Virus record (IMG/VR): IMGVR_UViG_2541047870_000002
Length of the DNA: 42,586 nt
Reading direction: 5' to 3' (one strand)
Origin: a virus
Lineage: Duplodnaviria > Heunggongvirae > Uroviricota > Caudoviricetes
The notes under the pieces were generated by a model that had not been told where the DNA came from, did no database searches, and was given only the letters and a program-made list of their open reading frames with translations. The position numbers and the translations under genes were made by a program. The number at the start of each line of letters is the position of its first letter. Position 1 is the first letter of the stretch. Shown here one piece after another: positions 1-42,586 of this stretch.

Positions 1-465
1 TCACTTTGATTCAATTTTGAAACTTTTTTTAACCACTAAAATCATGCAGCTAATCACTTCTGCAATGAGGTTAAGAGATAGCACGATAGCAAAAAGTTCT
101 AAAGCAGTAAATAGCTTGCCTTTAGAAGGGATAAATTCGTGCTGAGGATAATTTACTAGTGGTATGTCATAATTACGTAAATAGGGAAGGAAGATTGTTA
201 CTGCCAGACACATGACCAGTAATTTCAAATCTAATTCTAAACTATCTAAATAGTCCGTAAAGTCTGTGCTTTTCTCGCCCTTATTAATGACAGCCAAAAT
301 TCCGAAGATAACGGAGATACCTGCGGCAATACCTCCAAGTATTGAACCTATTACTCCAGCAGAAGCCTGCTCAAGTAAGGTATAAATGGTTTTATCAGTC
401 GATGCTAATGCTAAGCACAAAAAGAAGGTAGCTATAGCTTTAATCCAGACAGTTAGATTTTGCAT
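1..465 (-). CDS. small multi-pass membrane protein (about 4 predicted TM helices), cargo gene
   Basis: 154-aa ORF with four long hydrophobic stretches; start overlaps upstream gene stop by 26 nt; AT-rich; window begins exactly at its stop codon. Confidence 0.55.
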   Translation of the reverse strand: MQNLTVWIKAIATFFLCLALASTDKTIYTLLEQASAGVIGSILGGIAAGISVIFGILAVINKGEKSTDFTDYLDSLELDLKLLVMCLAVTIFLPYLRNYDIPLVNYPQHEFIPSKGKLFTALELFAIVLSLNLIAEVISCMILVVKKSFKIESK

Positions 466-1336
466 TTTTGAACGTATACCTGTTTTGATGTAATGCTATG
501 ATCTCTTTAATATCATTTGCTGAGTAGCCATCAAGTTCAATTTCTGATATCTCACCTTCGATCAGCACGATTTTGGCTGTCTGATTACTGGATACCGTAG
601 TAGATTTTGACTTGAGTGTCTTACGTCCTTTAATCAACCATGACCCGCCACCATCTTTGACCCAGTCAACAAGAGTCTCAGCCCAATGAGAACCTTTGAG
701 TTTCAAATTGCCATCTTTGTTTTCAAAAATAGTGGTCACAGTATTTGCATTGGTATCTTTTTCAAGCTTCCGTAAATCATTGGTTAACGCTTGCTTACTG
801 CTTCCGAAGATATTCGGAGTAATCAGCGTAAAGCTGACTTTGTCGATAAATTGAAGCCTATGGTATTCTGACCAAAAATCTTCCATTTCAAGACAAGGCT
901 CTATAAATATTCTAAGTCCTAACTGAGCCAAATAGTCGTTATTGGCTAGATCTTCGAACGCTTTAGCAACTTGTTGCGCATCCTTGAAAACAGCGGTTTT
1001 CCTCTCAACCAGTAACACCTGCTCTACTTTGTCCCAAATCCATACGATAGGTGGATAGTTGTCTACATCGTACTCTCGAAAGTCTTTATCATGTCCTTTA
1101 ATCTTTTGCAGCTTTGATATGACTCCAGCCATAACACCATCAGTAGGTTTTATGCTCAATTTCAGGGTGTAACTAGTTTTCTTATGAACGGAAGGTGTTG
1201 ATGACGTCATGTGTAAATTTTTTGCAGCGATAACCATAGCATTTTCAAAATGAGAGATATCTTTCTGAACAGTTCCTTTCGAAAAGAGGTCTGGATCGCG
1301 CGGTCTCATTAACACACGTAAGGCATACAACTGCAT
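440..1336 (-). CDS. hypothetical soluble protein, no recognisable domain; cargo gene coupled to downstream membrane protein
   Basis: 298-aa ORF, AGGAG RBS 8 nt upstream of ATG at 1336; no HExxH, P-loop or other motif seen; AT-rich relative to phage core. Confidence 0.55.
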   Translation of the reverse strand: MQLYALRVLMRPRDPDLFSKGTVQKDISHFENAMVIAAKNLHMTSSTPSVHKKTSYTLKLSIKPTDGVMAGVISKLQKIKGHDKDFREYDVDNYPPIVWIWDKVEQVLLVERKTAVFKDAQQVAKAFEDLANNDYLAQLGLRIFIEPCLEMEDFWSEYHRLQFIDKVSFTLITPNIFGSSKQALTNDLRKLEKDTNANTVTTIFENKDGNLKLKGSHWAETLVDWVKDGGGSWLIKGRKTLKSKSTTVSSNQTAKIVLIEGEISEIELDGYSANDIKEIIALHQNRYTFKNAKSNCLD

Positions 1337-1451
1337 AAGAAAACTCCTGTAAACTATTTGGTTTCATTATTCCATAAAACCAAGCACTTTCAAGAGCTTA
1401 ATTTTCTTTCAATTCTGTATGCATATACAGTATCATTCAATTTTGTAAAAT

Positions 1452-2579
1452 TCAAACCTTGATTTTTGCCCATTCCTTACCACGATCATCATGGTATTTA
1501 GCTGTCTGGTTAGGCGATTTATGTCCCAGAAGTTTTTGGGTGTCGACGCCCTGAGCTTCGTAAAGTCGCTCAGATAAAGATCTTTGTTCATGGAATGTGG
1601 CGGGCGAACCTTCACCCCAGTCAATGCCTGCTAAATCCCTCGCTTTACTGAAATTCATCGTCAATGTATTGGCTTTTACTTGCGCGCCACGTTCAGCCTG
1701 TGAAGTAGTACGAAAAAAATGTACAAGGTATGGGCTGACTGCATAGTCACGGCAGCGGGCTACTACATCGCGTAAACTCCAGTTAATTGCATTGAGGCGA
1801 AGGGAAAGCGGGATGGCGATTTTGCTCCCGGTTTTTTCTTGGATGACGTGAAGATGATCATCCCAAATATCGCTAAATTTCATACGTGAGATATCACCTA
1901 ACCGTTGGCCGGTAACCAGTGCTAACAGCATGGCATTCCCCATATAACGATGGCGGGCATCTGCGATATCAAAGATTTTTTGCCATTCTTCAAGACTTAA
2001 CCGTTGTCGGGTAATTTTTCTTCTGGGTTGTTTGGTTGCCAGTGCTGGATTATAGCCCGGAGGGACTTCCCCATAGTGTTGTGCCTCCTTGAATACATCA
2101 ATTAGAACGGAGCGGACTACTTGCGCCATCCTCGGTTGCCCGGCAGTGATATACTCGTCAAGTAATTGTGCTATATCCCTTACATCAACTGATGAAATTA
2201 ATTTCATTCCTGCTCGTTCCCTGAGCAAGGATACTGGTTTGGCTTTCTGTTTATAGGTGTTTAGCTTTATATCGCCACTTTCCAGTCTGTCATCCTGGAT
2301 TGCTTGATAGCGATCTAACCAGGTTGACGTTGTGATTGCTTTTCCTTTGCTGGTTGCGATCCTGTCACTGATAGCCAGAATCTGCCGGGTTCTTTGCTCA
2401 GCCAGGCGTGAATTTGCCTCAGTGGCAATAGCAATGGCTTCAGCTTCGTTTGTGCCTAAAGAATGAAACTTCCCGGTCACTGGATGTTTATATCGCCAAT
2501 AGACTTTATTTACTTTTCTACTATAAAGCGGATACAAGTTCGGGACTGAAACATTATTTTTACGTGGTCTGGCTGCCAT
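1452..2579 (-). CDS. int: tyrosine site-specific integrase (lambda Int family)
   Basis: 375 aa; C-terminal catalytic region with conserved R, H-x-x-R and Y context (…LLGHKSPNQTAKYHDD…); adjacent excisionase; prophage end position. Confidence 0.9.
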   Translation of the reverse strand: MAARPRKNNVSVPNLYPLYSRKVNKVYWRYKHPVTGKFHSLGTNEAEAIAIATEANSRLAEQRTRQILAISDRIATSKGKAITTSTWLDRYQAIQDDRLESGDIKLNTYKQKAKPVSLLRERAGMKLISSVDVRDIAQLLDEYITAGQPRMAQVVRSVLIDVFKEAQHYGEVPPGYNPALATKQPRRKITRQRLSLEEWQKIFDIADARHRYMGNAMLLALVTGQRLGDISRMKFSDIWDDHLHVIQEKTGSKIAIPLSLRLNAINWSLRDVVARCRDYAVSPYLVHFFRTTSQAERGAQVKANTLTMNFSKARDLAGIDWGEGSPATFHEQRSLSERLYEAQGVDTQKLLGHKSPNQTAKYHDDRGKEWAKIKV

Positions 2580-2805
2580 TACTTAAAATCCTTTGTAGAA
2601 TAATAGAATCATTTTTCTTGATGACAGGAGTAACTAATTCCCCAACTAACTCTGCGTCCTCACGCACTCGCCATAGTCGACCTTGTTTCATTGCCGGTGG
2701 ACAAAATAAATTCTGCTTAGCATAACGACGCAATGTGGACACGCTTGGAGGATTACTTCTGTATTTTTCCGCAGCCCATTCCTCAAGTGTCAGCATTTGA
2801 AGCAT
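2560..2805 (-). CDS. xis: excisionase (Xis-like); start chosen at second ATG with GAGG RBS
   Basis: Small basic protein immediately upstream of and overlapping int start; ORF track 2560..2820. Confidence 0.6.
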   Translation of the reverse strand: MLQMLTLEEWAAEKYRSNPPSVSTLRRYAKQNLFCPPAMKQGRLWRVREDAELVGELVTPVIKKNDSIILQRILSNGSQTT

Positions 2806-2848
2806 TTTTGATAACCTCATTTCTTTTGCTACAAAACTATTTCACTAG

Positions 2849-3397
2849 TTAATTTCGCTGTCTGGATTGTTTATGCATCTTATGCAGCTCTTTAAAGCGT
2901 TCCATAAACATCCCGTAGGCATGGCCCGGTGCCAGTGGAATCACGTTGAACATCTCTGTTGCCGGGATGCCTTCCAGTACAGGCCAGAAAGAGCCATCAT
3001 CAAGCCCGAGATCGCGGCGTTCGGTTGCCAGCATGATGAGATCGGCATATTTCACGGGCGTACTCATAACCGGGGGTAACCCGTATTTCTCACGGATTAC
3101 GGCGTCTATTTTTTCTTCCATCTGTTTATAGTCAGGAAGAAGGCGTTTCAGTGGAGCGGGGATGTCCTGGCAATACGCTTCTGTTGCATCATGCATTAAC
3201 GCTTCAAAAGCAAATTCCTGCGGTACCAGTTGGCTGCAAAGAACCGCATGTTGGGCGACGCTGTAGAAGTGTGAAAGATGTCCTGCAAAGCGACAGATAT
3301 TTGAAAGGGAAACCGCGATATCGTTAATAACGATGTCGTCTTTATTTATCCTGTCATAATAAAAATGCTTCCCAGAAAAAGTTTTAATAAATGACAT
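2849..3397 (-). CDS. HD-domain phosphohydrolase (YfdR-like 5'-deoxynucleotidase family)
   Basis: H…HD motif (AQHAV…LMHDATEAY); start set at internal ATG with GGAGAA RBS (ORF track 2849..3460). Confidence 0.7.
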   Translation of the reverse strand: MSFIKTFSGKHFYYDRINKDDIVINDIAVSLSNICRFAGHLSHFYSVAQHAVLCSQLVPQEFAFEALMHDATEAYCQDIPAPLKRLLPDYKQMEEKIDAVIREKYGLPPVMSTPVKYADLIMLATERRDLGLDDGSFWPVLEGIPATEMFNVIPLAPGHAYGMFMERFKELHKMHKQSRQRN

Positions 3398-3525
3398 TTT
3401 GTTCTCCACGTTATTTGCGCTGCACCGCACTGAATTCTGGTAAAAGGAAGCCCTCACCATCCGGCGATTATTGAGTTAATTACGTTTCCATAAATGCCCC
3501 CGCAGGGGCATTTGCAGTAATCAAA

Positions 3526-4350
3526 TCAGGCGGTGAAAGTACCAATAAAGGTTTCTACTTTGCTGTCTTTGAATTTCTCAACAAGCAGATCGCGAAATTC
3601 GTTAGCCATTTCTTCCTGCACCGCCTCCATCTGAATAATGCGCAGAACAAGTACAGGACGATCGCCAGTGATAATGCTGAGGCGTAATTTAAAAGAACGT
3701 TCTTTCAGACCTTCAAACGGAACGCATTTAAATTCAAATGCCACTGGCATAATGTCTTTGGTCTTCGCTTCGACAGACTCCATCAGGGAGCGTTTGCCGC
3801 TGAAGTCATTATCTTCAAAATCAGCGGTCTGGTTTGCTTCAATCGTGATTTTACGGACAGCCGCAGCCGCTTTTGTTGCCTGGATAGCGTCACCATTAGC
3901 ATCAAAACCCACAAGGTAGTCGGCCCAGTCTTCAATCCATTCTGCCAGTGACTTCTGGGAGTTACGCTCGCTGTTAACAGACAACAGTGCAGAGAACGGT
4001 GCTGTCTTTTTCAGTTTGAGAGTGGCGGTGTTATCTGCGTGACCTGGTTCATCAATAGTACCCAGGTTAAGCACACTGACGGCACGCATATTATCAGCAT
4101 CGATAAAGCAGCGGGTGCCTTCATCTGCAAGATCTTTAGAATAACGGGTAAAGTCATCGATGCTGGCAGTGGAAAGCGCACCACGGAAACGGAAGCGATT
4201 TAAATTAAATTTTTCCAGATCATGAATGCGGAAATTCTCAGGCAATGCCACAGCATCGGCACCAATCTTACTGATAATTTCATTAACACCCTGAGCAGAA
4301 ATAAGAGCATGGATTTGATTAATTGCGGTTGCGTCTAAGTTCTGAGACAT
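3526..4350 (-). CDS. YfdQ-like prophage protein (DUF2303-type), function unknown
   Basis: 274-aa ORF; resembles from memory the CPS-53 prophage YfdQ family; gene order YfdP-like/YfdQ-like/HD hydrolase matches that prophage. Confidence 0.55.
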
Positions 4351-4415
4351 AATAAGTCCTCACTATATAAAGATATTCAGTGATGAGATAAATAATCAGT
4401 TAATTAAGAACGATA

Positions 4416-4778
4416 TTAATGACCTGCTGCGCGGAGTTTTCCGTCAGGTTCACCGGCAAGAGTCAGTAATTGTCCCTGGTCTTCCTGCAGAATAGTCAGG
4501 CGACCACCGCGATTGACATACATCGGCGTTTCGGTGGTGTCTTCTTCAGAAATTTTCCCGCGGTTAGTCGGGCGAACATATGAGAGTTTGTGTTTGATTT
4601 TCACACGGTTCTCATCAAATGGTTCGATTTCCAGGTTGAGTGAGACCTTACCTTTGGTTTTCGTGTTCATCACACCGGAAGCGACTTCACTGAGAACTGC
4701 GCCGATTTTGGTTTCAAATACGCCGCCGTCCAGCTCCCCGATAAATGCCTGCACATCAGTACTGCGTTCGCTAGCCAT
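4416..4778 (-). CDS. hypothetical early protein (YfdP-like), 120 aa
   Basis: Start at internal ATG with GAGGAG RBS; the upstream extension of the 226-aa track ORF is Arg/Cys-rich junk. Confidence 0.5.
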   Translation of the reverse strand: MASERSTDVQAFIGELDGGVFETKIGAVLSEVASGVMNTKTKGKVSLNLEIEPFDENRVKIKHKLSYVRPTNRGKISEEDTTETPMYVNRGGRLTILQEDQGQLLTLAGEPDGKLRAAGH

Positions 4779-4827
4779 TTTGCTGCTCCTCATCATATCG
4801 ACCCTGCAAGGCCGATTAGTTTCTCCA

Positions 4828-4914
4828 CAAAACAGAGAAGAACACCTGCGGTGGCAGCCGCCCGGATGGATTGAGTTATGAGCCCGTCGTCCGGTGATGC
4901 TCTTCTCTGTTTTG
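4828..4914. repeat. long inverted repeat (about 14-16 bp arms, about 55 nt loop) in GC-rich non-coding block
   Basis: caaaacagagaagaac … gctcttctctgttttg are reverse complements; region 4780-5246 lacks a credible ORF. Confidence 0.5.
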
Positions 4915-5179
4915 TAAAAAGGACGGTACCAGCCGGAAGCAAGGGTACAAGCTGGTACCGCCAAGACTACACACAGCATAAAGTTGTGGTGCCGGGTGCC
5001 TCCCGGTGCCTGGCGAAGGTTGCACACCAGGCGGGTGGGTATCCACAGAAGGTCGACTGTCAGCCTCAACCTTAACCCGCGTGCGCTGAGCAGCATTCAC
5101 CACAACGCTAAGGATTCTCTCTGGTTGAAAATACTTAGCTGTTATGTGCCTGCTTTTAGCCACATCAGGCGAGGTGGAC

Positions 5180-5232
5180 CTGGTTATTCCCCAACAACAA
5201 GGATTCGGTTAATCTGGTTATCCCCAACAACG
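5180..5232. promoter_or_regulatory. two direct repeats CTGGTTAT(T)CCCCAACAAC spaced 34 bp, immediately upstream of the 144-aa gene
   Basis: Near-identical 18/19-mers at 5180-5199 and 5214-5232; RBS and ATG of 5247 gene follow. Confidence 0.45.
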
Positions 5233-5246
5233 CAAAAGGAAAAGAA

Positions 5247-5681
5247 ATGTCCGGTAATATCTACACGTTGTACAAATCCCACTGTGAAAATGTTGGAAAG
5301 TATCGGGGCATTGAAATCAGTGGGATAGTGTCATCAGTCGAAATAAGCAAAGTGGAATCAAGGGCAACATTACTTACTCTTCTGGATCTTGTCTTACATG
5401 AGCACCGGAAGAAATTCGGCACTCCCTATAATCAGTTGAATGGGAAAAAGGCTCTGGTTCACCTTATTCTGATGAAGCATCACTGGATGCCAAAACAGAT
5501 TAATGAGATGAAATTTGATGAACTTCTTCTTTCAATTCAGGATGAACTCACACTTGATAAAATAAGCGTAACCGCCCAGAAATTTTTAGATTATCGAGAC
5601 TGGAGATCACAAATTCATCACTTTGATGATTTTGACGAAAATGAATGGGATCCTAATTTGTCTGCACAATATCTAAAGTAA
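5247..5681 (+). CDS. hypothetical protein (reverse-oriented moron within the leftward early operon)
   Basis: 144-aa ORF with AAGGA RBS; AT-rich; no recognisable motif. Confidence 0.5.
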   Translation: MSGNIYTLYKSHCENVGKYRGIEISGIVSSVEISKVESRATLLTLLDLVLHEHRKKFGTPYNQLNGKKALVHLILMKHHWMPKQINEMKFDELLLSIQDELTLDKISVTAQKFLDYRDWRSQIHHFDDFDENEWDPNLSAQYLK

Positions 5682-5859
5682 CATCCTGTGATAAAACCGT
5701 GATTTCCTGATCCAGTTTTTTTAAGGAGTCTATTGTTTCCTGTCGATAAGACAGCACTTCACGAAGCTGGTTTATAGCTGCCAGCTTCTTTGTCATCCAC
5801 TCATAAATTTCCTCATCTGTGTAGCCAGGCGCGACGATTTTGGGTTCTGTTTTGTGCAT
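5653..5859 (-). CDS. small acidic protein, first gene of leftward early operon (N-position)
   Basis: Strong RBS GAGGAGGTG 5 nt before ATG at 5859; 68 aa; no arginine-rich motif; 3' end overlaps the convergent 144-aa gene. Confidence 0.5.
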   Translation of the reverse strand: MHKTEPKIVAPGYTDEEIYEWMTKKLAAINQLREVLSYRQETIDSLKKLDQEITVLSQDVTLDIVQTN

Positions 5860-5904
5860 TTCACACCTCCTCAAGTTATCAGTTACTTGTTGATGGGGAC
5901 CAGA

Positions 5905-5942
5905 TTGTTAAAGAGCTAAGCGTCCTGTAGGGCGCTTTTTTG
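5905..5942 (-). promoter_or_regulatory. boxA-like element (GCTCTTTAACAA on minus strand) with adjacent hairpin: candidate nutL; the same hairpin plus T6 reads as an intrinsic terminator on the plus strand
   Basis: Minus-strand RNA would read …GCGCCCUACAGGACGCUUAGCUCUUUAACAA…; hairpin 5919-5936 followed by TTTTTT on plus strand. Confidence 0.4.
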
Positions 5943-6016
5943 TTGCTAACGAATCATCCTGGACTTCATATGCCCCAGGCGGCTACTTCGTGGGTGTCCT
6001 GCCTGTTCGTTGTCTT

Positions 6017-37621: not shown

Positions 37622-37984
37622 AACGAACCTCTTTTAATAAAGTCAAGTGATAATGAAAGATAAATATTGTAAACGAAAAAGCACTGGACTGGAACATATA
37701 TCTCTGCCTATAATTTAACCAGGATAATTTTACTAACGCAGTCATAATTCGTTCATGTATACCAGATGAAAGTACATGTTCTATGAAATAGGGTTTTGCC
37801 TGGAGTTTGAAGGTTTTTAACGATTATACCTGTTTAATCGACTCCCCATGTTTTTTGACATTATCCACCGCACACGATACTGGATGCCAGGCAAACTGAT
37901 TTGCTGGCATAAAGTCACTGAGAATTTTTTACCAACAATATCTTGCCACATCTTTGATCCTACCCACGTAATATGGACACAGGC

Positions 37985-38851
37985 CTAAGCGAGGTTCTGG
38001 TTTTCAAATTGTTCCGGACTGAGGCCGCCACACCAACTGTGCCGCCGCCACCGATTGTAATCACATTCGATATAATTAAACACCGTTGCCCGCATTATTT
38101 CCCGGCTGATAAAGTGTTCTCCATGGATACATTCCACTTTCAGCGAATGAAAGAAGCTTTCCACGCAGGCATTATCGTAGCAGCAACCTTTTGCGCTCAT
38201 ACTTCCACGCAGATTATGCCGCTTCAGTTGCGCCTGATAATCTGCTGAACAGTACTGGCCTCCACGGTCCGTGTGAACGATAACGTTCCGGGGCCTCTTA
38301 CGCCGCCACAGCGCCATCTGCAGGGCATCGCAGGCCAGTTGCGCCGTCATGCGTGGCGACATTGACCAGCCAATAACGGCACGTGACCACAGGTCAATGA
38401 CCACTGCCAGATACAGCCAGCCTTCATCTGTACGTAAGTACGTGATGTCTCCTGCCCACTTCTGGTTCGGGCCACTGGCGTAAAAATCCTGCTCCAACAG
38501 ATTTTCTGACACAGGCAGGCCGTGTGCGCGGTAGCTGACCGGGCTGAACTTCCGGGAGGCCTTTGCCCTCAGTCCCTGACGGCGCAGGCTTGCCGCCACG
38601 GTTTTTACGTTAAAGGGGTAACCCTGAGCACGCAGTTCATCCGTCAGGCGTGGGGCACCGTAACGCTGTTTTGACCGGGTAAAAGCCGCGAGGACAACGC
38701 TGTCGCAGTGTTGGCGGAACTGCTGACGCGTGCTTATCCTTGTCCGCCGCTGACACCACGTATACCAGCCGCTGCGGGCCACCCGGAGCACGCGGCACAT
38801 TGCTTTGATGCTGAACTCAGCCTGATGTTTTTCAATAAAGACATACTTCAT
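37985..38851 (-). CDS. insF: IS3 transposase OrfB (DDE integrase domain)
   Basis: 288 aa, recognised IS3 transposase sequence. Confidence 0.9.
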
Positions 38852-39147
38852 TTCAGGCGCTTCGCGAAGTATGTCGCGGCCTTTTGGAGGATAGCCAGCT
38901 CTTCATCCCGTTCTGCCAGCTGGCGTTTGAGACGTGCAATCTCGGTAGACATCTCCAGTTCACGTTCAGAAGACGTCTGCTGATTTTGCTGTTTACTGCG
39001 CCAGTTGTAGAGCTGTGATTCATACAGGCTGAGTTCACGGGCTGCGGCAGTAACACCGATGCGTTCAGCAAGCTTCAGGGCTTCACTGCGAAATTCAGGC
39101 GAATGCTGTTTACGGGGTTTTTTACTGGTTGATACTGTTTTTGTCAT
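38848..39147 (-). CDS. insE: IS3 transposase OrfA (HTH)
   Basis: [32 protein letters not shown]… recognised as IS3 OrfA; track ORF 38848..39156. Confidence 0.9.
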
Positions 39148-39432
39148 GTGAGTCACCTCTGACTGAGAGTTTACTCACTTAGCCGCGTGTCCACTATTGC
39201 TGGGTAAGATCACTTTTCCCGCACAGTTTCGGCAATAGAATCAGCGGGCAGCGGTCATCAATATTCATCAGACATTGATCTGCCGCACTATCTGACCGGT
39301 GTCCTGCTGAGAATACTAATTTCTTTTTTTGCAAGTGCTGTCCAATCATGATTGGGGGGGGGCGGCGGAGTTGAAACCGCAGGTACGTTGTATGCAATAA
39401 CGTGCTGCGGTTTAATCTTATCAATTGAATAC

Positions 39433-40209
<777 letters not shown>

Positions 40210-40910
40210 CTATTGTCTGTGAATTATTTGTCTGGCATATGTTAATGAATGTTTTGAGGATTCACAACCAATAGTATGGGCTAACGTCATCCTACATTTG
40301 AGGTGGCCAAAAATAAGCAATTTTTAGTAGGCACGAAGTTGAGCACCATCGCCCATTCATATCTGTGTGTAAGTTGTATCAGACAGAGTCTGAACTAATG
40401 AAATAGAATTAATCCCATATTGTTACTAATCGAACAGTTATTCTGAGATGTTACATTGTAACGAGGGTATATCGTTGGGTATGCCTGAGGTATTGCACAC
40501 CATTAGACCTACGGCGAACTTCCCCTGTCTCCAGACGTTGCTGATACTAAAGATAACGGTGCTGCATTTTATCAGAATTGCCATAGAGAATTGCATTATA
40601 GTAAAAATGAGAAAGAACTAATTGAGATGCATTGCGTTAATATAAACCGATTACAGAAATAAAATTGTTTATTAAAGTCACATTTAAGATGTAATACCCT
40701 ACTTGGTAAAAATTTTCTCTGATCATAATTTCTGCAAATATTAATTGCTATTTTTATGCTAAAAGTGGTTATCAAAACTCAAAAACACATGTTGATAATC
40801 AATGAGTTAGGGAGATGCTAAGAGCTAATGAGTTATATGCAAGTTAGTAAAATTATGTTGCTATATCAAATAGTTGAGAATTAATCATCTAACTAATGTT
40901 ACGCCATATG

Positions 40911-41060
40911 GGTTGGACTGAAGCGGCTGACCTGATTGTTAAAGGTATGGAAGGCGCAATCAATGCCAAGACCGTAACCTATGACTTCGAACGTCTGATG
41001 GAAGGCGCTAAATTGCTGAAATGTTCAGAGTTTGGTGACGCGATCATCAAGAATATGTAA
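40911..41060 (+). pseudogene. icd: 3'-terminal fragment of isocitrate dehydrogenase gene (icd'), marks the attR junction
   Basis: Translates to [49 protein letters not shown]-stop, recognised as the Icd C-terminus; no upstream icd sequence. Confidence 0.8.
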
Positions 41061-41082
41061 TCTCTCCATGTGTTAAATATTG

Positions 41083-41116
41083 AAACGGGCGTATAACACG
41101 CCCGTTGTTTTATTTA
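41083..41116 (+). terminator. intrinsic terminator following the icd fragment
   Basis: Stem AACGGGCGT/ACGCCCGTT, 5-nt loop, then GTTTTATTT. Confidence 0.6.
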
Positions 41117-41162
41117 TGTGGATATTATTAATAGCATATCGAGCATATTTATATAAAACCCT

Positions 41163-41486
41163 TTACTTGAGCCCATATGGGCATATTTTTATAATGCAAC
41201 TATTATGCAAACATTTATTTGTTATTTTGCTTTCTCCTGGAGGACACTCTTGACTGCTTTTGAGTAGACTCCATAAATCCTTGTTGAATGGTGCGATGTT
41301 ATAAATAGTAATAGGATATTCTTTATCTTTAAGGATAATACCAGATTTAACCGGTTTAAATATACTGCCAGGAGGGAGAAATATAGTAGATTGATACCAG
41401 ATGATCATTTTCATATCACCCCATATGACTGAAAAAGATATACCGCATGTAGGTTGAATTACCGTGTCAATTACTATCCACTTCAT
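41163..41486 (-). CDS. iraM: anti-adaptor protein IraM (host gene)
   Basis: 107 aa beginning [19 protein letters not shown]…, recognised as E. coli IraM. Confidence 0.8.
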
Positions 41487-41928
41487 TTGTTATGTCTTAT
41501 CCCACGGTATTTAATATAGTTCATTTGGATATTCATTTCTTTATTTTGCATATGAGTATATTACCCCTTCAAAAAATAAATTAATTAAAACGATTGCTTA
41601 TATAAAACAAAATTTAAAGCAAGGAATCTCAATGGATGTTAAACAAAATGAGATTTAGTGAAAACAATAAATTATTCACTTCGTTTTAGATTTGTTTAGC
41701 TATAATGTTATACATTCAAATGACTGAACATCCTGTAATTAAAACATAGCCTTTATGCTACTTGGTGCCAATTTGCTAAACATTATGGTTGCTTTTTTAT
41801 ATAACGATAATAATGAATATAAGCATGACATGAGAATAAGGTTCCAATTTTTGAGTTATATAGGAAAGGTTTAACCTGTTCCTGGCTAAAATACATATAA
41901 CTGGATGATGACTAAACCAAAACACATG

Positions 41929-41980
41929 TGCGTTAAGTATTGAAACGGGCGTATGGCACACCCGTTGTTTTTATAAATAT
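41929..41980 (+). repeat. second, diverged copy of the icd-terminator region (about 50 bp, roughly 85 percent identical by eye to 41066-41116)
   Basis: catgtgcgttaagtattgaaacgggcgtatggcacacccgttgttttt versus catgtgttaaatattgaaacgggcgtataacacgcccgttgtttta. Confidence 0.5.
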
Positions 41981-42181
41981 ATTAACCGTTATAAAATAAC
42001 GTATAGAAAGTCAAGTGATCACATTTCAAATATCAATTTGATAGTATTGGCCTGGTGATTATTTATGGGTAGCAATAAAAGGACAGTATTTATCATCCAT
42101 AGGGATAGTCTCTGTACTTTTATTCCCATTATGCTAATGCCTTACTGAATTATGAAGCATTTCTTTAGTATCCAACTTTAG

Positions 42182-42586
42182 CTAGATTAATGGTTTATTA
42201 TTTTCTACATCTTCAATATATAAAAGCGTATTATCAATGGCGTAGTAACTGCGTTTGTTATGATTAACATCAGTAACCCAACGGAAAACGCCCGCGCCTG
42301 CTAGTGTTGAACAGTATTCCCGAAATGTAGATTTTCCGCAAATATGAAGCAATGCGGCCTCTTTTATTTTAGCAGGGTTCTTGGTCGTACTAACTTTTAA
42401 CAGGTTCCTGGTTCCTCTTAATAACAAAACCGTATCATCGTGAGTAATAATTCTGATGTTATCCGTAGCCAGATAATAAATGTAATGTGCAATACGGTGA
42501 TGTTTTAATTCTGAATAAAACCAGGAGAAGTTTTGCTCTTTTCTCACTTGCTCAAACATCTTTTGAAAAACAACGACCTGATCCAT
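42182..42586 (-). CDS. ycgX: host protein YcgX-like (DUF1398-type); start codon coincides with the window edge
   Basis: 134-aa ORF downstream of iraM in the order expected for the E. coli icd locus (from memory). Confidence 0.5.
   Translation of the reverse strand: MDQVVVFQKMFEQVRKEQNFSWFYSELKHHRIAHYIYYLATDNIRIITHDDTVLLLRGTRNLLKVSTTKNPAKIKEAALLHICGKSTFREYCSTLAGAGVFRWVTDVNHNKRSYYAIDNTLLYIEDVENNKPLI

Follow-up and report, generated by a model that had tools for sequence, protein, structure and literature searches.

A decayed second copy of the icd terminator beside iraM as a probable fossil of serial integration at the icd locus of Escherichia coli

It has long been established that the elements e14 and phage 21 integrate into icd and duplicate its last ~165 nt (Hill et al. 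1989, as cited in PMC13626634 and PMC6379469). The stretch of DNA analyzed here (the window; 42,586 nt of a Caudoviricetes genome, IMG/VR record IMGVR_UViG_2541047870_000002) bears near its right end an icd 3' fragment followed by the canonical icd terminator, which we call T1, and then, between iraM and ycgX, a second and diverged copy of that terminator, T2. Why does a second icd terminator lie there, with iraM between the two copies, and what does it record? The coordinates on which the argument rests are collected in Table 1. The ymgL−ycgX flank at the right end of the window is found beside icd in every E. coli. A link between PhoP and iraM is established, and the iraM upstream region contains a PhoP-box-like repeat.

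Table 1 Features of the window discussed in the text, with positions counted from its first nucleotide.
Feature	Coordinates	Strand	Remark
Resident e14-family prophage	1-40895		Fills this part of the window; head, tail and lysis genes
intE-type tyrosine integrase of the resident prophage, 375-aa ORF	1452..2579	-	icd-proximal (left) end of the prophage
xisE-region ORF	2560-2820		From the ORF list; together with 1452-2579, 98-99.7% identity to the annotated intE/xisE prophage of 268.2
IS3-family insertion	37956-39212		Present in the window, absent from the relative 268.2
e14-type arm-type motif GGTTATCAAAAC	40766..40777	+	Phage side, ~120 bp left of the attR junction
Displaced icd 3' fragment (icdC-type pseudogene)	40896..41060	+	Left edge is the attR junction
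T1, canonical icd terminator	41069..41111	+	Hairpin 41084-41106 plus T-run
iraM (RssB anti-adaptor, PmrD-fold family)	41163..41486	-	Sole gene within the T1-T2 cassette
iraM upstream regulatory region	41487..41928	-	Part of the cassette
PhoP-box-like repeat	41686-41702		In the iraM upstream region, overlapping a minus-strand promoter-like site
ymgK, 14 codons	Within 41487..41928		In the iraM upstream region; annotated in relatives
T2, putative fossil icd terminator copy	41929..41971	+	Hairpin 41944-41966 with one C.A mismatch, then TTTTT; right-hand direct repeat of the iraM cassette
TAACCGTTATAAAA, candidate degenerate e14-type arm-like site	41983..41996	+	12 nt right of T2
ycgX (DUF1398), phage protein family	42182..42586	-	First sizeable gene right of T2

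The icd fragment itself was assigned by comparison with occupied and unoccupied sites. Its ORF comprises the last 54 codons of icd plus the stop (165 nt, with the C-terminal end ...IIKNM) and matches, at 100% identity, the 3' end of icd in the prophage-free strain DS26-1, where the order is rluE, intact icd, iraM, ymgL and ycgX. Identity to DS26-1 starts exactly at 40896, and to the left of this position the window resembles the phage-side flank of the K-12-type e14 attR, TTA(A/G)TCATCTAACTAATG. Over its entire length the window is collinear with the e14-family prophage (~39 kb) that is integrated in icd of E. coli 268.2, in which intE/xisE are icd-proximal and head, tail and lysis genes lie between; positions 1-6013 share 99.7% identity with its intE/xisE-annotated region. 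Since homology to prophage-free E. coli starts at 40896, the e14-family prophage that occupies the window to the left has its attR at this junction. The left edge of the fragment coincides both with the start of the icd modules carried by phages and with the start of homology to the unoccupied icd, and a tyrosine integrase and an excisionase occupy the opposite, icd-proximal end with contiguous phage genes between. Position 1 of the window lies ~20 nt inside the left end as defined by the 268.2 prophage, so the left junction falls just outside; it bears a decayed icd module (seen in contig L009) and an arm site ~20-330 nt before position 1. An attL-type left junction, together with a further small remnant, is present in 268.2.

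This part of the finding is already textbook knowledge. The e14 attR and the icdC pseudogene of E. coli K-12 were reportedly described by Hill, Gray & Brody in 1989, and the K-12 arrangement agrees with the window in the ~165-nt icd 3' fragment at the int-distal end, in its start position, in the phage-side flank and in having iraM and ycgX downstream. The difference is in the element, e14 being a defective prophage of 15 kb, whereas that of the window is full-length (~40 kb), with head, tail and lysis genes and an IS3-family insertion. The initial annotation, made from the window alone, had read the fragment as marking the attR of an icd-integrated prophage, and the start of DS26-1 identity, the collinearity with 268.2 and the starts of the phage modules bear this out. 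The fragment it reported, from 40911 and with 49 codons, begins further left and is longer, and the boundary had been placed near 40905-40930. For programs that call prophage boundaries, the right end is 40895/40896, and T2 is not an att site of the current element.

T1 begins 8 nt past the icd stop codon and spans 43 nt, with a 9-bp G+C-rich hairpin and the tail GTTTTATTT. Its predicted fold has −17.8 kcal/mol (z = −4.2), and it was the sole good terminator-like site called in that stretch; a stable G+C-rich hairpin directly before a U-run characterizes it as a Rho-independent terminator, which probably also terminates the convergent iraM transcript. T2 matches T1 at 38/43 positions (88% identity), with a start-to-start spacing of 860 nt, and every difference between the two sits left of the last 11 nt. 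The second copy is real, as had been claimed, and lies 860 bp, not 850 bp, further on.

Could a match of this length be fortuitous, or represent a dispersed hairpin repeat or a local duplication made without mobile elements? T2 is short (43 nt) and lies between genes in A+T-rich DNA, a setting in which hairpins resembling terminators are common. When either copy was compared with the whole 42.6-kb window by local BLAST, the other copy was the only match found, with E = 7e-9, and the resemblance is for this reason not due to chance. The terminator sequence occurs in a median of two copies per E. coli genome, all consistent with modules at the icd locus, and representative genomes have one or two loci with the pattern. 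With a maximum of six copies per genome, the sequence lacks the many copies of a REP-, BIME- or MITE-like intergenic repeat, a candidate that we rejected, and an Rfam search of 40000-42586 returned sub-threshold noise only. Across bacteria and archaea, with one genome per species, the pattern was confined to Escherichia and Shigella apart from two short metagenome-assembled contigs labelled Sutterella and Veillonella; both bear the icd 3' end along with the terminator, and are therefore read as misnamed Escherichia contamination. The precise presence/absence polymorphism of the intervening segment and an icd coding tail beside a counterpart of T2, both presented below, also speak against a fortuitous or repeat origin, which we regard as effectively refuted.

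T1 and T2 form direct repeats around an 860-bp cassette that consists of iraM and ~440 bp of its upstream sequence. The interior of the cassette (41114-41928) has 29.6% G+C, whereas the icd fragment has 45%. Of 5426 complete E. coli genomes, 3842 cover at least 80% of a query that runs across iraM and includes both copies, and in 1036 of the 5426 the segment between the copies is exactly absent, one terminator being kept in contiguous sequence; in 199 of these 1036, icd is intact and both prophage and iraM are missing. In NGF1, ATCC 25922, U12A and STEC299, for example, icd or the displaced fragment is followed by a single terminator and then by the right flank of T2 (TATAAATAT...ymgL, ycgX), with exactly 860 bp missing. 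Direct repeats derived from the 3' end of the target gene hence flank, as at the boundaries of an island, a segment that is precisely absent elsewhere. Prophage-free strains carry T2 at the same place, and T2 is therefore unrelated to the present prophage. Neither integration machinery nor recognition sites were found inside the 860-bp cassette. In E. coli, the sequence to the left of T2 showed no significant remnant of icd when anchored alignments of 30-165 nt were evaluated against shuffles and genomic controls (p ~0.5).

The single terminator at the iraM-less sites is T1-like at 43/43 positions and has the five-T run of T2, and no T1/T2 hybrid was seen in five alleles. The iraM-less state could be ancestral, with the displaced copy drifting later, which fits a single T1-like terminator. 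A later deletion fits equally well, in which T1 and T2 would have recombined within their last 11 nt.

Phages that use icd carry the same terminator. Phage 21 and ~25 related phages bear the icd 3' end with the terminator, and the homology of these modules runs from position 1-7 to position 218 of the fragment (40896-41113 in the window), so that it ends ≤2 nt from the right end of the T1/T2 repeat (41111). The phage 21 record (GenBank OL657228) is annotated with an icd-like pseudogene, the terminator, the P1P2P3 arm sites and then int; its module ends at GTTGTTTTAT. The arm consensus is YYTTCCCCAAAA in phage 21, compared with (A)ACGGTTATCAAAA in e14-type elements, whose modules (L009 and L038-L040) have 2-3 copies of AACGGTTATCAAAA immediately right of the terminator. 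The e14-type arm motif also stands on the phage side of the attR of the window (Table 1), and three icd modules are stacked in strain 268.2. The likeness of the phage 21-type and e14-type layouts argues that the icd 3' end with its terminator is a module that each element brings. T2 differs from the phage 21 attP in being devoid of the coding part and in having an e14-type arm-like site as its neighbor. The right flank of two further contigs (L005 and L007) had been considered as a third flank type and turned out to consist of phage-21-type arm sites, these being ordinary lysogens.

A larger version of the island is preserved in divergent lineages. IraM homologues at 73-75% identity led to three contigs from public SRA assemblies (L017, L027 and L028), and a variant of YcgX led to three longer ones, of which L038 and L039 are from NCBI assemblies with proteins labelled E. 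coli and L040 is a sequencing-run contig. The mnmA−icd region of the longer contigs is 96.5-96.7% identical to that of DS26-1. In L039 and L040, icd is followed by a terminator copy T(a), e14-type arm sites, a gene for a 455-aa protein, a TrkH-family (trkG-like) gene and a different hairpin, and then by iraM (80% nucleotide identity), a ymgB-like gene, the iraM upstream region, ~195 extra nt, ATCAAGAATATGTTAA, a spacer, a second terminator copy T(b), ycgX, bluR and bluF. T(a) and T(b) are ~6.3 kb apart. This 6.3-kb island starts with e14-type arm sites without an integrase, and no integrase is left anywhere in it or in the 860-bp cassette.

The sequence ATCAAGAATATGTTAA is a 16-nt icd tail, namely the last four codons and the stop with one inserted base, at the correct distance from the hairpin of T(b); T(b) with the icd tail is also present in L017. 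T(b) holds the position of T2, with orthologous flanks on both sides, and the two have in common an AAGT variant where T1 has AAAT. The icd tail, the position and the shared variant together imply that T2 is the remainder of an icd 3'-end module that had been displaced. On the 3' side of iraM, the small and the large island become homologous immediately after a hairpin and a T-run in each, a pattern compatible with a deletion from one terminator tail to another. Between the two island types, the iraM cassettes differ by ~20% and the flanking housekeeping genes by 3.4%, and this disparity indicates either an old relationship or separate, perhaps repeated, acquisition.

Taken together, T2 is probably the fossil of an icd 3'-end module, a product of serial integration at this gene, and the region downstream of icd an accumulation of stacked integration remains. 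Elements of the e14 and phage-21 types recombine at a core ~165 nt before the icd stop, each bringing a replacement module (the last 165 nt of icd and the terminator) followed by arm sites and int. With each integration, icd gains a new 3' end and terminator, and the previous module, with everything behind it, is shifted to the far side of the element. Read from left to right, the uppermost layer is the resident prophage and the second the module that it displaced, i.e., the icd fragment with T1 (40896-41111). The third would be an older element whose sole surviving cargo is iraM with its own promoter region (41114-41928), and the fourth T2, as the remnant of the module that the iraM element had displaced, cut in E. 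coli to its terminator part of ~45-50 nt. We infer this order of events, and the 860-bp cassette would likewise be a larger island reduced by deletion. Among the points against this reading, the T1-like terminator at the empty site requires, if T2 is the older module, that T2 drifted after its displacement or that active icd terminators are homogenized by selection or by exchange with phage modules; the icd-tail evidence is from the divergent lineages only; and neither form of the iraM island has kept an integrase.

A rival reading is an integration scar of another geometry, in which the iraM element crossed over within the last 11 nt of the terminator (CCCGTTGTTTT), T1 being host-derived and the diverged left part of T2 coming from the attP of the element. 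Such a crossover would account for an empty-site terminator that equals T1 at 43/43 positions and for differences that all lie left of the last 11 nt, and the iraM, ymgL, phage-21-arm and e14-arm flanks do all diverge right after GTTGTTTT(T)AT. The end of the phage-borne module, however, accounts in full for this common breakpoint, and the known icd-targeting integrases cross over ~165 nt upstream, the excision of e14 swapping the icd 3' end (PMC13626634). Moreover, T(a) of the large island precedes e14-type arms, as expected of a module brought by the element, T(b) retains icd coding sequence, and the arm-like site lies to the right of T2 and not to the left. The positions of the arm sites and the icd tail thus accord less well with a crossover in the terminator than with one at the 165-nt core, and we consider the former improbable.

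The arm-like site bears on what brought the module of T2. TAACCGTTATAAAA is the sole match to TAACGGTTATCAAA with ≤2 mismatches in the whole window on both strands, where 0.29 would be expected, and it stands 12 nt from the terminator, compared with 12-15 nt in the e14-type modules. The site is also present right of the terminator at the iraM-less empty site. It suggests that the sequence right of T2 is a fossil arm and that the module of T2 was itself brought by an e14-type element that left ycgX, a reading that we hold loosely because this 12-of-14 match was noticed after the fact. The degenerate arm site and ycgX would then possibly be a fifth layer, the remains of a still older element.

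The initial annotation had proposed that the second copy may be the scar of an earlier integration, suggested comparing prophage-free strains, and taken a copy at the same place in such strains, with no att-like context, as evidence to the contrary. That comparison, now made, does find T2 at the same place in prophage-free genomes, but an att-like context exists for the older event. The proposed scar is supported by the precise absence of the segment in 1036 genomes, by the 6.3-kb island with its icd tail and by the arm-like site; what it records is unrelated to the present prophage.

Does T2 still act as a terminator? On the plus strand, the mismatch reduces its hairpin to −11.4 kcal/mol (z = −0.3) with the U-run kept, and a terminator scan made no call at T2 on either strand. 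Whereas the T1 stem was invariant across the alleles examined, T2 occurs with an intact stem in L042 and L043 and departs from this form in three different ways elsewhere, each time without compensation in the stem. The type of the window, shared with DS26-1 and others, has a G-to-A change in the 3' arm and that of L041 a G-to-A change in the 5' arm; the K-12 type (L008 and L044) has the 5'-arm G-to-A together with two further changes, a C-to-G in the 3' arm that is likewise uncompensated and an A-to-G located just within the loop. T(b), the counterpart of T2, is wholly deleted in L038. As a plus-strand terminator T2 is most likely non-functional, and its independent uncompensated stem mutations, set against the invariant T1 stem, argue that it is a relic.

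Some function may persist where the minus-strand ycgX−ymgL transcript ends. We accordingly weighed the alternative that T2 is kept for a function, either as a 3' hairpin or terminator of that transcript or as an insulator before the iraM promoter, which would be compatible with an origin as a scar. None of the iraM-bearing E. coli alleles examined lacks T2, and on the minus strand the G-to-A changes of the window type and of L041 leave the hairpin paired through G.U, at −13.4 and −12.6 kcal/mol versus −15.3 kcal/mol for the intact form. The minus-strand tail UCAAUACUU, on the other hand, is a poor U-tract, the K-12-type allele is mismatched on both strands (−9.7 kcal/mol), and the missing terminator call on both strands and the outright loss of T(b) in L038 also speak against retention. 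Two transitions in the favorable direction are expected by chance in ~1/4 of cases, and the allele sample is small. Maintenance of T2 by function is thus rather unlikely.

The cargo between and beyond the terminator copies is of phage type. IraM homologues at 54-69% identity occur as opposite-strand morons between the Q antiterminator and holin genes of lambdoid prophages, including Stx prophages, and YcgX homologues at 70% identity as prophage morons in E. albertii. IraM, the TrkH-like protein of the 6.3-kb island and YcgX match PHROG families 4407, 1916 and 413, respectively. The TrkH-like protein is full length and comparable to Rac trkG. With prophage-moron homologues, PHROG matches and 29.6% G+C, the cargo has the marks of a mobile origin. 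At the DNA level, similarity between the cassette and phage-borne iraM-like morons was confined to the coding region, and no donor phage was identified in this comparison. The YcgX homologues looked up proved to be paralogues in unrelated contexts, namely these E. albertii prophages and a fli-region gene in Escherichia sp.

The locus can be placed among known cases. The end of DLP12 is marked by a 47-bp argU repeat (PMC6379469). As with scars and tandem islands at tRNA and other target genes, the duplicated 3' part of the target marks the far end, repeated use of the site stacks elements, and decay leaves repeat-flanked cargo; the differences are that the target icd is protein-coding and that the surviving T2 is a terminator alone, the coding part and the crossover core having been lost. 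Among anti-adaptors, iraL is on the potB island of CFT073 (PMC4045071). The chromosomal iraM resembles the IraM, IraL and RssC prophage morons in being a small A+T-rich gene with its own promoter that is present or absent among strains, and differs from them in lying outside any recognizable prophage, bounded by two copies of the icd terminator. The second terminator copy and the cassette boundaries are not described in the literature searched, where icd and icdC alone are treated. The locus adds a clean new case to the scars that derive from the 3' end of a target gene and lie at integration hotspots.

For iraM, the consequence is a corrected record. Its presence or absence among strains is known, and the gene has been placed 'on the e14 prophage' (PMC4045071), an assignment that prophage-free strains bearing iraM contradict. 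The gene would instead be what an older element left behind at this hotspot, with its boundaries and the empty site now defined, and its variable presence from strain to strain is explained, strains with and without the gene having the same flanks, icd to the left and T2 with ycgX to the right. In addition, fossils that consist of a terminator alone can mark old integrations after the coding part and the core have gone, which is useful for delimiting islands near att sites in protein-coding genes. Tentatively, iraM and the ymgL−ycgX flank may have been laid down in the manner of growth rings by successive e14-type integrations, each leaving a terminator module and cargo, a possibility to which we give less than even weight. 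If it holds, a branch of RpoS regulation that PhoP controls, located a few kb from phoPQ, would have originated as prophage cargo and been domesticated, the sequence of acquisitions being readable from the fossil modules, and, should the flank extend further, the bluR/bluF−ycgZ−ymgAB network could be included.

The cassette, the 860-bp segment that holds iraM between the icd terminator T1 and its second, decayed copy T2, carries a putative regulatory region of its own, since a promoter-like site on the minus strand lies upstream of iraM and is overlapped by a PhoP-box-like direct repeat. The phoPQ genes are close by, no more than a few kb away on the upstream side of icd. To the right of T2, we found that CGTTATAAAATAACG (41987-42001), a 6-bp perfect inverted repeat with AAA at its centre, overlaps an arm-like site.

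Features of the iraM upstream region and the right arm of the prophage
Feature	Coordinates	Strand	Remarks
PhoP-box-like direct repeat, CGTTTT-AGATT-TGTTTA	41686-41702		overlaps the promoter-like site
Promoter-like site, -35 TAAACA, -10 AATAAT	within 41671-41702	-	~190 nt upstream of iraM
IS3-family element with two ORFs (102 and 288 aa)	37956-39212		inserted in the right arm of the prophage
LEM-3-like GIY-YIG gene	39433-40206		follows the IS3-family element

The icd terminator hairpin seems to be a recurrent target of IS200C, because this element adjoins T1 as well as T2 in E. coli 746, directly 3' of GTTGTTTTT in each case (~330 and ~1905 of locus L043), and accompanies the single terminator in two further strains (H128 and H129), where it was placed only to the interval between icd and ymgL. 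The T1 loop of strain 746 is inverted (GTGTTATAC).

The prophage of E. coli 268.2 does not have the IS3-family element and is otherwise 98-99% identical to that of the window. The interval that separates this e14-like prophage from the intact icd is occupied by another e14-type remnant, which is small (40790-41945 of locus L009). It comprises an ORF of 615 bp, part of an integrase gene and a decayed icd module (the 3' end of icd plus terminator) with an arm site, so that three icd modules are stacked in one strain. In Shigella flexneri SFBU0723 (L003 and L004), the chromosome has two complete copies of the segment that runs from the icd 3' fragment through T1 and iraM to T2; they are separated by ~50 kb, an interval that includes the origin of the record.

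In the iraM-less strains NGF1 and ATCC 25922, an island encoding the iron/manganese transporter SitABCD adjoins icd. This island matches the b-region of phage 21, in which sitA and the same 759-bp ORF lie to the left of attP, and is therefore a phage-21-type prophage remnant at icd. In E. coli U12A, the iraM-less attR terminator (~362 of L047) bears the left-hand variant TTAAAAACGGTAACGGG, which is found elsewhere in T(a), the terminator that follows icd in the divergent lineages L039 and L040. This shared variant suggests an exchange of icd modules between elements and hosts.
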